IMG/VR virus record: IMGVR_UViG_2541047122_000019
Source: a virus
Taxonomy: Duplodnaviria > Heunggongvirae > Uroviricota > Caudoviricetes
Strand: one strand, 5' to 3'
Length of the DNA stretch: 4,893 nucleotides
Within the stretch, counting starts at the first letter, position 1. Each line of letters opens with the position of its first letter. Below are positions 486 to 4,886 of the stretch, in pieces. The notes under the pieces were generated by a model. That model did not search any database and was not told where the DNA came from. It saw nothing but the letters and a program-made list of their open reading frames with translations. Both the position numbers and the translations under genes were made by a program.

Positions 486-2021
486 TCACTTCGCAATTCC
501 TGGCTGGACGACATTCGGACGCCAGCTCTCCCAGTTAAAATTCACCCATCGCCCGCCGTTCATGGTCATGCGATCCATAATCCGCTCGCCGAGCAATGTT
601 TTCATGGCCTCATAGTTCAGGTTTGTCAGCATCCCCACGCTGCGCATCGACGCTGTCCGGCGATCAACAATCTGGTGCAGCACCACCTGCTCGTTTTTCG
701 TCTCGCGCTGAATGCCAATTTCATCAAGAACCAGCAGATCTACTTCGCACAGCTCCCGCAAAAATTTTTCGCCTGACTGCCCGTCGTCATAGCTGGCGTG
801 CAGGGCGCTCATAACATCAGCCACGGTAACCACAATCACTGTCTGACCGTCTTTCAGCAGGCGATTCCCGATAGCTGCCGCTAAGTGATTCTTCCCGGTA
901 CCAGGTTTTCCGCTGAACGCAAAATTTGTACACCCGGTCATCAGTTCATCGGCGATGGATTTCGCCTGGCTTAACGCGTATCGCTGGCCGTCGTTCTGCA
1001 CCTGGTAATTCGCAAACGAGCATTTACGGTGCAACGGCTGGATGCCTGAACGATTCAGAATTTTTTCCACCCGCAACTGGCGATTCAGGCGGTTGATCTC
1101 CTCGCTACGTTTCTGGCCTTCAGCAAGTTGCCACTCGCGCCACTCCGCTACCGTTCTGAATGGGGCGGTTACATGTGGCGGGGTCAGTCGGCGGATGCGT
1201 TCCAGAACGCCGCCTGTCGCAATATTTTTCATGGTCCGTTCCCCCCTGAAGCCTGGCGGGATCGCACTGTCCGGCAACGAGACAGTGTTAACCTGTCGGA
1301 GCAACGTCTCAGGCCGAACACCTTTCGGCGCGAACAGGCCCTGGTATTCATTGGCGATGCTGTGTCGAATCACCTGCTCAGGTGTAAAACCCTGCTGACG
1401 GAATTTTTCCAGCTCCCGTATCGCCCCGTTAGCGCCCTGCTCCGTTCGAATCGGTTTTCGCAATGCCTGCCTGAACTTAACCCACTCATGCCAGAGTGTT
1501 TCCGGCAACCAGTCAGGCAGCTCGATAGCCTCCGGCTCGAATTTTTTAGACGCTCGTTTTTGGCGAGGGGGATTTAGGGGGAGATCAGTATTTATATCTT
1601 CCTCTTCCTCTGGTAACGCTTTTTGATCCGTTTGTGTAACGCTGCCAGCGTTACCTTTTCGTTTCAGTTCGCGTATTTTTGTAACTCGCTCGTTTGTAAC
1701 CGCCCGTTTTTTAGAGCTTTTTCCGTTATGACGTTCAAAGTTAGGTAGAGAAAGCCCACCGTCATTTTCGACCAGCCATCCAACCTGAATTAACGCATCA
1801 GCAAAACCAGCCATAAAAGTGATGCGGTCTATTGCACTTTTTGTAACGCCGCGAGCGTTACAATCTGCATTACCGTCTATCATTTGTTGATCCGCCCATG
1901 CCCAGAAGCGAATAACCTTCCCTAATGCGGCATCTGGATCAATATTCAGAATCTCAGCAAGCCTGAATATTTCCGGCTTATCCGGCGTAATAACCTCGAG
2001 CTTTATCCAGTTTGAAGCCAT
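486..2021 (-). CDS. Phage replication protein: N-terminal initiator domain and DnaT-like segment fused in frame to a full-length DnaC-like AAA+ helicase loader (YdaU/YdaV-like modules in one ORF)
   Basis: 511-codon ORF, ATG at 2021..2019 with SD AAGGTGA 6 nt upstream, stop TGA at 488..486. C-terminal 248 aa carries Walker [16 protein letters not shown], Walker [11 protein letters not shown], and [19 protein letters not shown] and [10 protein letters not shown], matching E. coli DnaC as recalled from memory. Residues about 175-260 end in [16 protein letters not shown], resembling the DnaT C-terminus. An internal ATG (1232..1230) with G-rich SD would give a stand-alone 248-aa DnaC-like product. 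Confidence 0.85.
1585..1712. repeat. Iteron-like repeat cluster with adjacent AT-rich stretch inside the replication gene; candidate phage origin of replication
   Basis: GTAAC-containing repeats at 1613-1620 (gtaacgct), 1636-1654 (19-bp perfect palindrome gtaacgctgccagcgttac), 1681-1688 and 1696-1703 (tttgtaac direct repeats). AT-rich run cagtatttatatcttcctcttcctc at 1586-1610. The region encodes the low-complexity acidic linker (..[11 protein letters not shown]..) between the N-terminal and DnaT/DnaC-like modules, as ori-lambda lies in the linker-coding part of gene O. Confidence 0.45.
1841..1863. repeat. Palindromic site TTGTAACGC-N5-GCGTTACAA, same family as 1636-1654 and 2034-2054
   Basis: ttgtaacgccgcgagcgttacaa read directly; 9-bp arms are reverse complements. 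Lies inside the N-terminal domain coding region of the replication gene. Confidence 0.4.
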
Positions 2022-2033
2022 TTGTTTTCACCT

Positions 2034-2054
2034 TGTAACGCTCGCAGCGTTACA
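2034..2054. promoter_or_regulatory. 21-bp palindrome TGTAACGCT-cgc-AGCGTTACA in the leader of the replication gene; candidate operator or initiator-binding site
   Basis: tgtaacgctcgcagcgttaca lies 13 nt upstream of the replication-gene ATG (2021), between the ydaT stop (2099) and the SD. Same arm sequence as the in-gene palindromes at 1636-1654 and 1841-1863. Confidence 0.45.
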
Positions 2055-2856: not shown

Positions 2857-3276
2857 ATGGAAAAAGAAAACGAAAAAATTGCCGCTAGTAGGCTCAATGA
2901 CAAAATTGCAATGCGTCTTAAAGAGCGCAGGCAGAAGCTTGGTTTATCTCAAGGAAAACTTGCTGAAATCTGCGGATGGACGCAATCGCGTATAGGTAAC
3001 TATGAGGCGGGCAGCAGAAATGTTGGAGTGCATGACGCTGTCGTATTGGGAAAGGCACTTGGCATATCTCCTCCTGAGCTCCTATTTGGAGAACAGGAAT
3101 CTTCTGAATTGTGGTTAAATGAATCCCAACGAAAACTTCTTGAGTTGTTTAACCAGCTACCTGGCTCAGAACAACAACGAATGATTGAGCTATTTGAAGT
3201 CCGGCTAAAAGAAATCGATGAGTATGTAGAAAAATATTTGAGAGGCAGGCTTAAAGATAATCCCCCACCGGAGTAA
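2857..3276 (+). CDS. Prophage repressor, XRE-family HTH N-terminal domain with helical C-terminal domain (DicA/RacR-like)
   Basis: 139-aa ORF, ATG 2857 with SD AAGGA, stop TAA 3274-3276. HTH LGLSQGKLAEICGWTQSRIGNYEAG. C-terminal LLELFNQLPGSEQQRMIELFEVRLKEI resembles the DicA C-terminal region as recalled from memory. Divergent from cro and followed by an intrinsic terminator. Confidence 0.85.
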   Translation: MEKENEKIAASRLNDKIAMRLKERRQKLGLSQGKLAEICGWTQSRIGNYEAGSRNVGVHDAVVLGKALGISPPELLFGEQESSELWLNESQRKLLELFNQLPGSEQQRMIELFEVRLKEIDEYVEKYLRGRLKDNPPPE

Positions 3277-3306: not shown

Positions 3307-3331
3307 AGCCCGCTATCAGCGGGCTTTTTTG
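3307..3331 (+). terminator. Rho-independent terminator downstream of the repressor gene
   Basis: Stem agcccgct (3307-3314), loop atc, stem agcgggct (3318-3325), followed by a T run to 3330 (gggcttttttg). 8-bp GC-rich perfect stem, 30 nt after the stop codon. Confidence 0.75.
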
Positions 3332-3359: not shown

Positions 3360-3401
3360 AACACATTTCGTGTTGACATAAGAAAACGCATTGTGTTTAA
3401 T
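3360..3401 (+). promoter_or_regulatory. Near-consensus sigma70 promoter (TTGACA-17 nt-TTTAAT) overlapped by an operator-like palindrome; candidate repressor-controlled rightward early promoter
   Basis: -35 TTGACA at 3373-3378, 17-nt spacer, -10 TTTAAT at 3396-3401. Palindrome AACACatttcGTGTT at 3360-3374 overlaps the -35; a degenerate copy AAAACgcattGTGTT at 3383-3397 overlaps the spacer/-10. Same half-site family as 2785-2799. Confidence 0.55.
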
Positions 3402-3822: not shown

Positions 3823-4400
3823 ATCTGGATATCCATAACAGTAAAAATCTACAGATTGCCGTTCAGTTTTCTGGCCAACTCTTCAATAGATGGAGGTGAT
3901 ACGTAATCCGGATTTTTATTCATAAGAAACTGATTTTCACAGTACAGGCACCTGCTTTTATGAAAAAATTCATATTCTCTAACCGGGAATGGCTGAAGTA
4001 TCGATACTATCTTTTGTCCAAAACATTTTGGACAAAGATGCATGATTATGCTGCCGCCGTTCACGGTTACCTCCTTCGAGTACACAAAAGTTCCCGACTC
4101 AAGTTGGCTAAGGATATAACCTTCCGTCTGAGCCTCAAAGTTTTCAAATTCTGCAATTTTAGCTTTGAGAGAAGCATTTATTTCTTGATAAGTGCCCACC
4201 AGCTCAACGAGAGACACGCATTCGCGCTGAATAGATGCAAGCTTTGAGTTCAGTTCACCAATAGCCGCATTTACTTCAGCTTGAGTTTTTGCCTCGTTCA
4301 TTAGTTTTGCAATCTGGGCGGTTTCACGAATAGCCGTCATTGCTGCCGTTAATTCAGCGATCACATTCAATACTCTTATTGTTGTTGGGGATATCCAGAT
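3823..4400. mobile_element. Putative small insertion cassette: 578 bp, AT-rich, 12-bp perfect terminal inverted repeats, flanked by a 5-bp direct duplication TAACA, carrying one ORF
   Basis: Left end ATCTGGATATCC (3823-3834) is the exact reverse complement of the right end GGATATCCAGAT (4389-4400). The match extends inward to 17/19 (left 3822-3840 vs complement of 4383-4401). TAACA directly abuts both ends (3818-3822 and 4401-4405). Hand-counted GC is about 35% at 3961-4020 against about 60% at 1201-1260. Confidence 0.4.
3849..4340 (-). CDS. Hypothetical protein, about 163 aa: N-terminal coiled-coil-like helical region and C-terminal CxxC-x22-CxxC zinc-ribbon-like motif; cargo of the AT-rich cassette
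   Basis: Minus-strand ORF with stop TAG at 3851..3849. Best start is ATG 4340..4338 (MTAIRETAQIAKLMNEAK...); alternatives are GTG 4364 or the track start 4517, whose first 59 codons lie in GC-rich sequence outside the cassette and look like a spurious extension. C-terminus has HLCPKCFGQK...(22 aa)...CLYCENQ. No recognisable SD; AT-rich codon usage. Family not recognised. Confidence 0.6.
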   Translation of the reverse strand: MTAIRETAQIAKLMNEAKTQAEVNAAIGELNSKLASIQRECVSLVELVGTYQEINASLKAKIAEFENFEAQTEGYILSQLESGTFVYSKEVTVNGGSIIMHLCPKCFGQKIVSILQPFPVREYEFFHKSRCLYCENQFLMNKNPDYVSPPSIEELARKLNGNL

Positions 4401-4541
4401 TAACAAGATCCTTGTTGTTGGGGAATAACGGGGACCACCTCGCCTGACGTGGTAAAAAGCAGGCACACAACACGAAAGCACACGGCGAGGGACACCATTA
4501 AATGGTGGCTTAAGCAATCACGCGAAGCGCAATCTGCCATT

Positions 4542-4886
4542 ATGACCGATGAAATCCCGTTAGATGATGCACTGTTACAATTGCGGGAATTTATCGACGA
4601 AAACTCCGGTGAATTTTTTGTTCAGGTCTGGGGAAATGGAGCCAACTTCGACAACACGATTTTGCGCCGTTCATACGAACGGCAGGGGATCCCCTGCCCG
4701 TGGCGTTACACCAATGATCGCGATGTAAGAACGATGGTTGCTCTGGGACTGGTGATGGATTTCGACGCAAGAACGACTATTCCATTCGAAGGTGAACGCC
4801 ATAACGCCCTGCACGATGCGCGTTACCAGGCAAAATACGTTTCAGCCATCTGGCAAAAACTGCTCCCGAGTCAGGCTGATTTTTAA
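4542..4886 (+). CDS. DEDDh (DnaQ/Orn-like) 3'-5' exonuclease-like protein, apparently lacking the N-terminal Exo I motif (truncated gene or remnant)
   Basis: ORF open from 4404; track start GTG 4449, first ATG 4542; stop TAA 4884-4886. Exo II-like motif VWGNGANFDNTIL and Exo III-like motif HNALHDARYQ (H-x-A-x-x-D-A) are present. No D-x-E Exo I motif in any in-frame upstream sequence. Weak SD at both candidate starts. Confidence 0.55.
   Translation: MTDEIPLDDALLQLREFIDENSGEFFVQVWGNGANFDNTILRRSYERQGIPCPWRYTNDRDVRTMVALGLVMDFDARTTIPFEGERHNALHDARYQAKYVSAIWQKLLPSQADF

Follow-up and report, generated by a model that had tools for sequence, protein, structure and literature searches.

Near-invariant 19-bp palindromes in a YdaU-type initiator gene of a Rac-like Escherichia coli prophage: probable initiator sites of a putative origin within the gene

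An origin of replication that lies within the initiator gene, alongside inverted repeats cognate to the initiator, is textbook knowledge for phage lambda. There, inverted-repeat iterons of 18–19 bp and an A+T-rich tract are found in the central part of gene O (PMC7466680, PMC3349717). Here, we describe a candidate for a similar element in a window of 4,893 nucleotides (nt), the whole stretch of DNA that was analysed (IMG/VR virus record IMGVR_UViG_2541047122_000019). This window covers the region of a lambdoid, Rac-like E. coli prophage that serves immunity and replication; it shares 93–99% identity with 'Escherichia phage Rac' (MN652886) as well as with prophages from 695 of the 5,426 complete E. 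coli genomes. Three copies of the palindrome GTAACGC-N5-GCGTTAC occur in and just upstream of its ydaU-type initiator gene. We consider it likely that the palindromes are the cognate sites of the N-terminal domain of the YdaU-type initiator and that, together with a neighbouring half-site, a polypurine tract and an A+T-rich stretch, they make up an origin inside the initiator gene, as in ori-lambda.

The Rac prophage of E. coli K-12 shares the gene order of the window (repressor, cro-like gene, ydaT, ydaU, ydaV), and its oriJ has been cited as an active origin (PMC3945230). Within YdaU the likeness is limited to the C-terminal half (81% identity over residues 138–262); the N-terminal domain of the K-12 protein is of the DUF1376 type and unrelated, with no similarity detected by BLASTP or hhalign. 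Plasmids carrying oriJ were reportedly described by Potrykus et al. in 2000. Homologous N-terminal domains, with 32–65% identity, are instead found in phages TL-2011b, epsilon15, SPN1S, Xanthomonas CP2 and Pseudomonas PAN70 and in Xylella/Xanthomonas phages, in proteins annotated as 'replication initiation protein' or 'primosomal protein I'. For none of these phages did we find an origin or a binding site in the literature.

The locus resembles ori-lambda, as it is described for gene O of lambda and of lambdoid or Stx phages (PMC7466680, PMC3349717), in several respects. The putative origin lies inside the initiator gene and has inverted repeats of about 19 bp; the sites are placed at the boundary between the N-terminal, presumably DNA-binding and the C-terminal, presumably loader-binding parts of the protein, next to a short A+T-rich stretch that may be the unwinding tract; a helicase-loader gene follows the initiator gene; and the N-terminal domain and the sites are swapped together between phages. 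On the other hand, no relation to lambda O can be detected in the sequence of the N-terminal domain (no Pfam match), one site lies inside the coding region of the putative DNA-binding domain itself, a long polypurine tract of the (GAGAA)n type is fixed in the core, and the site is nearly invariant across phyla.

All three palindromes consist of 7-nt arms and a 5-nt spacer, 19 bp in total, and the window holds no other palindromic copy (table 1). A preliminary description of this DNA had listed same-arm palindromes at 1636–1654, 1841–1863 and 2034–2054 with a spacer of N3–5; the palindromes are present as listed, and the variable spacer is an effect of extending the arms. Site 1 lies upstream of the initiator gene, between the ydaT stop and the initiator start as first proposed, and ends 13 nt 5' of the ATG, immediately 5' of the Shine-Dalgarno sequence AAGGTG. 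Sites 2 and 3 lie in the gene and encode C-N-A-R-G-V-T and G-N-A-G-S-V-T, respectively. From the start of one palindrome to that of the next there are 207 and 192 nt, and the DNA between them holds half-sites only. Additional half-sites, which had been placed near 1613–1703, were also found there, at three places. With up to three mismatches allowed, the pattern occurs three times in the window (0.17 expected) and the 7-mer GTAACGC nine times (0.55 expected); none of 200 shuffles reached three and nine, respectively.

Homologues of the N-terminal domain were collected in three ways: by protein search, from one genome per species (74 loci) and from viral contigs (at least 579 relatives, 80 of them fetched). 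They belong to Enterobacterales, other Pseudomonadota, Planctomycetota, Verrucomicrobiota and Ignavibacteriae, and are joined to many different C-terminal domains. Down to about 42% protein identity, their genes carry the same palindrome at two places, one between +146 and +161 and the other between +335 and +413, with no variation in the arms and free variation in the 5-nt spacer. Thus, the outcome that the preliminary description had set against its own reading, repeats lost from homologous genes, was not seen: the repeats are kept, with frozen synonymous codons. The upstream copy is the least conserved, which is a caveat to reading the sites as an origin. It is present in nine of 18 enterobacterial representatives, at −31 to −44 (one at −76), again with invariant arms and a variable spacer, and is absent from distant homologues.

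The half-sites differ in how well they are kept. At the alignment position of the one next to the polypurine tract (1613–1619), GTTAC is found in all 18 enterobacterial representatives, and most distant homologues have GTTA[CG] 1–2 nt ahead of the tract. The two direct half-sites at 1681–1700, which encode the V-T pairs of AVTNERVTK, are less conserved than the palindromes, as the one at 1696–1700 is present in 5/18 and the one at 1681–1685 in 11/18 of these representatives. The position of the degenerate half-site upstream of site 2 reads GTAAC in 15/18. Among close E. coli relatives, 11 of 42 arm positions and eight of 15 spacer positions are polymorphic (p=0.11); we do not rely on this comparison, in which recombination and one or two decayed copies are confounders.

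The palindromes are under selection at the nucleotide level. This was revealed by comparing codons at the sites with those in the rest of the same genes, using 47 representative genes with less than 90% nucleotide identity over the first 150 nt. The in-gene sites encode (G/C)-N-A-x-[S/G/R/C]-V-T, and their synonymous codons are frozen: valine is GTT in 75/75 cases (against 33% in the remainder of these genes, p=1e-33), asparagine AAC in 75/75 (62% elsewhere), the preceding glycine GGT in 44/45 (22% elsewhere) and serine AGC in 46/46 (23% elsewhere). Directly outside the arms there is free variation, including at the third position of the threonine codon. Frozen codons with free flanks indicate that the motif G-N-A-x-S-V-T is imposed by the DNA site. 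The earlier suggestion that the repeats are not explained by coding was borne out, both by the frozen codons and by the one noncoding copy.

A few loci have switched to another site sequence. A GTCACGC/GCGTGAC class is seen at both in-gene sites of five loci (L060, L073, L069, L068 and L037) and at the single in-gene copy of two others (L066 and L050), and arose no fewer than three times; GTTGCGC/GCGCAAC (L038), CTAACGC/GCGTTAG (L056) and GTTACGC/GCGTAAC (L030) were each found at one locus. In these variants all arms of both in-gene sites are altered together, and the encoded residues follow (N to H, or N..V to C..A). Such concerted change, within and between sites, speaks for a symmetric, sequence-specific binder that the locus itself encodes, and does not fit independent RNA hairpins or a constraint on the peptide. 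The explanation that the repeats arise by chance or as a by-product of a recurring peptide, G-N-A-x-S-V-T, and have no role as DNA is thus one to which we give next to no weight. It is true that the peptides encoded by two of the three copies are alike and that G50 and N51 look near-invariant in protein alignments; yet the synonymous codons are frozen, one copy is noncoding, the variant loci change the peptide while keeping the palindrome, site 3 is read in another frame in some lineages with its DNA sequence still kept, and chance is excluded by the shuffling controls.

The same data bear on whether the repeats act in RNA. Hairpins in the early mRNA (7-bp stem, 5-nt loop), recognized by a protein, could serve translational control or mRNA stability. 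In line with this, every copy is on the transcribed gene strand, arm pairing is preserved in all variant classes, the end of site 1 adjoins the Shine-Dalgarno sequence, and some winged-helix proteins bind RNA, SelB being among the weak fold matches. However, the stems do not covary freely: the arms do not change across phyla, nor do they differ between sites within a locus, and such a fixed arm sequence argues for sequence-specific reading rather than structure alone. Moreover, loop sequences are free, the hairpin closest to the start codon is the least conserved, and the half-site next to the polypurine tract, which is unpaired, is kept in all 18 representatives. Nor does a T-run follow any copy 3' on the gene strand, so the palindromes are not intrinsic terminators; a single weak match that resembles a terminator, at site 3 but on the antisense strand, is within chance expectation. 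Altogether, we regard action as RNA hairpins as very improbable.

The motif and the N-terminal domain go together in whichever direction they are searched. In 71 representative loci, 69 exact palindromes fall in the zones from −100 to +450 of the gene (38.9 kb) and none in 318 kb of flanking DNA. Per kb, the 7-mer occurs 6.97 times in these zones and 0.11 times in the flanks, compared with a random expectation of 0.12. The preliminary description had asked for the motif to be counted genome-wide, since a common motif would speak against it; the background density in the flanks means that the motif is neither a general one of the genome nor one of the methylation or REP-like kind. Starting from the motif, a search through viral contigs led back to the same protein. 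That is, a homologue of the N-terminal domain lies beside the motif in 101 of the first 120 stretches, and in 52/52 of the stretches with at least two copies; several of the remaining stretches are at contig ends. The palindromes travel only with this N-terminal domain and change in concert within a locus. Indeed, the domain is the sole component common to all loci. The upstream genes vary (an anti-repressor and a methyltransferase are among them), and the downstream gene, where identifiable, is a helicase loader of varying type: the window and an Akkermansia locus (L027) have a DnaC-like one, and Pseudomonas nitroreducens TX1 (L068) has one that is lambda P-like. In a Stieleria locus, the downstream open reading frame (ORF) matched no family.

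These associations also weigh on who binds the sites. A host factor of conserved specificity might bind them in place of the prophage initiator, as the GTAACGC class is identical in very different hosts, and some host origin proteins, such as DnaA, keep their specificity across bacteria. This remains very doubtful, slightly more so than the hairpins, given that site classes differ between related hosts (GTCACGC in Pseudomonas nitroreducens, GTAACGC in two Phytopseudomonas species), that in none of the flanks does the motif exceed its background density, that the scan from the motif ties it to one phage protein domain and that no DnaA box was found near the palindromes. A palindrome kept letter for letter in several phyla is most likely the initiator's own binding site, and the N-terminal domain probably binds it as a dimer.

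The palindromes adjoin a conserved polypurine and A+T-rich element within an initiator and helicase-loader module. Past site 3, nearly all homologues show the same order: a half-site GCGTTA[C/G]C, a polypurine tract, an A+T-rich stretch and, often, C6-N3-C6. The tract is of the (GAGAA)n or (GAGGAA)n type and starts 1–2 bases past the half-site, with the purine strand always the mRNA-like strand. In 70 representatives the median length of the longest purine run is 19 nt, as opposed to 7 nt (95th percentile, 12) in control windows of the same loci, and in 83% of the representatives the run reaches the control 95th percentile. The encoded peptide differs among lineages (EEEEE or REEKRREE), and therefore it is the purine run, at the DNA level, that is kept. 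The preliminary description had reported an AT-rich stretch at 1586–1610. Its A+T content is 64% by count; read on the gene strand, the region is better described as the polypurine tract (1597–1611) and, next to it, an A+T-rich stretch (~1584–1598). Comparable TATAAA or AAAGAT stretches come after the tract in relatives and in K-12 ydaU. The C-tract element that bounds the A+T-rich stretch has counterparts in the same place, C7-TAAAT-C7 in K-12 ydaU (L003:3134–3152) and C6-N3-C6 in distant relatives; it may reflect either a proline-rich linker or a DNA element. Two GATC sites (1583–1586 and 1625–1628) flank the half-site, the tract and the A+T-rich stretch, and Dam methylation or SeqA could act at them.

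It could still be that the sites are operators only, through which the initiator or another prophage protein represses or tunes initiator expression, with the origin elsewhere in the prophage. Site 1 lies directly 5' of the ribosome-binding site, and a spacing of about 200 bp could allow repression by looping. Nevertheless, we find an operator-only role unlikely. Site 1, the copy nearest the expression signals, is the least conserved, as opposed to the in-gene pair that is kept across phyla; no promoter-like site was found near any copy; the half-site, polypurine tract and A+T-rich stretch after site 3 are needless for an operator; and the N-terminal domain is swapped along with the repeats, which mirrors the origin specificity of lambdoid phages. 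The upstream copy may, as first proposed from its position, have an additional, autoregulatory role.

The domain swap is seen in the comparison with K-12. Homology to K-12 YdaU begins at residue 138, directly past site 3, the half-site and the purine tract. K-12 ydaU has no GTAACGC palindrome; just before the domain junction (L003:2972–3088) there are CAGATGTTCAAAC-like repeats instead, in five or six copies that include an inverted one, and these are candidate initiator sites of the K-12 Rac origin. The post-repeat A+T-rich stretch and the element of two C-tracts around TAAAT are common to both. We are thus looking at two unrelated N-terminal domains, each with its own repeats, on one shared C-terminal domain. 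The exchange of a repeat set with the N-terminal domain is an arrangement known for lambdoid O genes and origins (PMC7466680, PMC3349717). Within the close relatives, 37 distinct E. coli sequences have 1–8 polymorphic positions per 30 nt before +360 and 17–30 after it, an approximately five-fold jump. As the jump falls at about +360 (window ~1600–1660), the core coincides with the recombination junction between the N- and C-terminal modules.

The initiator itself required a correction, since the preliminary description had treated it as part of a 511-residue replication protein. This ORF is not a natural single gene but an artefact of a stop-loss substitution, TAA to GAA. In an alignment, the minus-strand codon at 1233–1235 is GAA in the window, where strain RM8082 and phage Rac MN652886 have a TAA stop; 6 nt on, ydaV starts in the same frame, so the initiator and YdaV are read as one. 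The exact 511-residue fusion has been recorded just once elsewhere, in an assembly (Logan SRR710098). Over residues 1–260, its whole length, the initiator fits the profile of PHROG 2509, 'replication initiation protein' (E=2.9e-87), and distant loci match it too; this name is an annotation and not a tested function. Its C-terminal domain matches PHROG 678, 'replication initiation O-like'. In a Pfam scan, the 511-residue ORF gave IstB_IS21, Bac_DnaA and ArsA only, all within the YdaV part, and no Phage_rep_O.

For the N-terminal domain, no Pfam or NCBIfam family was matched, and a profile search against PDB sequences gave no matches. SelB is among the weak fold matches. One structural match, to pSK41 RepA (PDB 4pta), a RepA_N plasmid initiator of Gram-positive bacteria, is too weak for a claim of homology. 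In RepA_N plasmids such as pSK41 the origin lies within repA. These systems differ from that of the window in being plasmids rather than prophages, in having no detectable sequence relation and in their type of repeat. We also considered the site-encoded asparagine as a necessary base-reading residue and rejected it: L014 (aspartate) and L050 (serine) keep a normal site 3.

By analogy with lambda, the initiator would be produced from the rightward early operon, and its N-terminal domain would occupy sites 1–3 and the half-sites, drawing about 420 bp of DNA into a nucleoprotein complex. The duplex would then open at the adjoining polypurine and A+T-rich element, and the C-terminal domain would recruit the DnaC-like YdaV, which in turn would deliver the host DnaB. 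In this scheme we infer the binding of the N-terminal domain, its dimeric form, the firing of the origin and the place of unwinding. The proposal that initiator sites, and an origin, lie inside the replication gene as in ori-lambda had already been made in the preliminary description, and is supported at the sequence level by site conservation, frozen codons and the K-12 domain swap.

Several observations weigh against an origin of this kind bound by the initiator. Three palindromes about 200 bp apart, with half-sites, are not the 4–6 tandem iterons of lambda, with no array of four or more iterons spaced by about 20–25 bp, and the A+T-rich stretch is about 15 nt, compared with 38–40 bp in lambda. 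No residues outside those encoded by the sites were found to covary with site class. A Verrucomicrobial subgroup (L032, L046, L058, L059, L063 and L064) has partial half-sites only. Finally, we found no binding or replication experiments on this N-domain family in the literature. Two further loci have no standard palindrome and carry, ahead of a purine-rich tract, CCGGACG-type repeats (L076) or a GTCGTC-N7-GACGAC palindrome (L057); they and the Verrucomicrobial subgroup are possibly further specificity classes. As to helical phasing, the distances between sites 2 and 3 are ~189–264 nt, with no evident 10.5-nt register.

A more far-reaching version would have the family as a previously undescribed cross-phyla origin type, with a fixed 19-bp palindrome code and opening through an R-loop at the (GAGAA)n tract in place of a classical A+T-rich element. 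Speculatively, the purine-rich mRNA of the initiator would pair stably on the tract beside the bound initiator and provide the entry point for the loader. We think this version improbable. The family was not found described in the literature, in a limited search that did not extend to the older papers on Rac oriJ. The features for which we found no description are the uncurated N-terminal domain, the 19-bp site that is near-invariant across phyla, the dispersal of sites ~200 bp apart, the site inside the coding region of the putative DNA-binding domain and the fixed polypurine tract.

If the palindromes are indeed initiator sites within an origin, they provide a ready prediction of both for a large uncharacterized initiator family (at least 579 relatives in viral contigs), which spans prophages of Planctomycetota, Verrucomicrobiota (Akkermansia) and many Pseudomonadota as well as phages epsilon15 and TL-2011b. 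For E. coli, the sites would mark those Rac-like cryptic prophages that still have an intact origin module. The gene would also be a clean case of overlapping code, with G-N-A-x-S-V-T dictated by the DNA site and not by protein function, which affects how conservation is read in such genes. Moreover, the site is unusually stable for an initiator–origin pair and has a few natural switches of specificity, such as GTAAC to GTCAC; stability and switches together make the recognition code directly testable with short oligonucleotides.

The assignment of ydaV rests on matches to NF009043 (E=1.7e-153) and to a DnaC equivalog model (E=2.4e-91), along with the Pfam IstB_IS21 match.

Table 1. Coordinates of the palindromes, core elements and genes in the window.
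Feature	Position	Strand	Remarks
Palindrome, site 1	2035–2053 (extendable to 2034–2054)		GTAACGCTCGCAGCGTTAC; noncoding, in the 77-nt gap between ydaT stop and initiator start
Palindrome, site 2	1843–1861 (extendable to 1841–1863)		GTAACGCCGCGAGCGTTAC; gene position +161, within N-terminal domain coding region
Palindrome, site 3	1636–1654		GTAACGCTGCCAGCGTTAC; gene position +368, linker coding region
Half-site GCGTTAC	1613–1619	minus	1 nt before the polypurine tract
Two direct GTTAC half-sites	1696–1700, 1681–1685	minus	15 nt apart; TTTGTAAC repeats on the plus strand
Degenerate half-site GTAATGC	1867–1873	minus	12 nt upstream of site 2, with a single mismatch here
Polypurine tract, 15 nt	1597–1611	minus	AGAGGAAGAGGAAGA on gene strand; encodes the acidic EEEE linker
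A+T-rich stretch, ~15 nt	~1584–1598		GATATAAATACTGAT on gene strand; candidate unwinding region
C5-TAAAT-C5 element	1567–1581	minus	bounds the A+T-rich stretch; encodes the P-L-N-P-P segment
ydaU-type initiator, 262 residues	1236–2021	minus	start codon at 2021
Initiator N-terminal domain, residues 1–137	1611–2021	minus	putative binder of the palindromes
Initiator C-terminal domain, residues 138–262	1236–1610	minus	
ydaV, DnaC-like helicase loader	486–1232	minus	in-frame fusion to the initiator in the window
ydaT	2099–2521	minus	stop codon 2099–2101
cro-like helix-turn-helix gene	2518–2760	minus	
Repressor gene	2857–3276	plus	

Some other elements were seen outside the initiator gene. The space that separates the divergent repressor and cro-like genes holds two palindromes resembling operators, AACACACCTTGTGTT and ATCACGATTCGTGAT (2785–2799 and 2831–2845), and a third, AACACATTTCGTGTT, lies 3' of the repressor gene (3360–3374); all three are probably repressor or Cro operators. 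Directly past the repressor gene, a G+C-rich hairpin, AGCCCGCTATCAGCGGGCT at 3307–3331, is followed by TTTTTTG and looks like an intrinsic terminator. On the gene strand, TTGATTGAAATTGATC at 2087–2102 contains two TTGAT(T/C) repeats that overlap the 3' end of ydaT. The YdaT of prophage CP-933P presumably binds a TTGATT-N6-AATCAA inverted repeat; the repeats at 2087–2102 are direct, not inverted. Finally, an ORF at 4449–4886 resembles an Rv2179c-like 3'-5' exoribonuclease over positions 47–177 only of the Pfam model and overlaps a 222-residue ORF on the opposite strand (3849–4517); it may be a truncated or rearranged gene.

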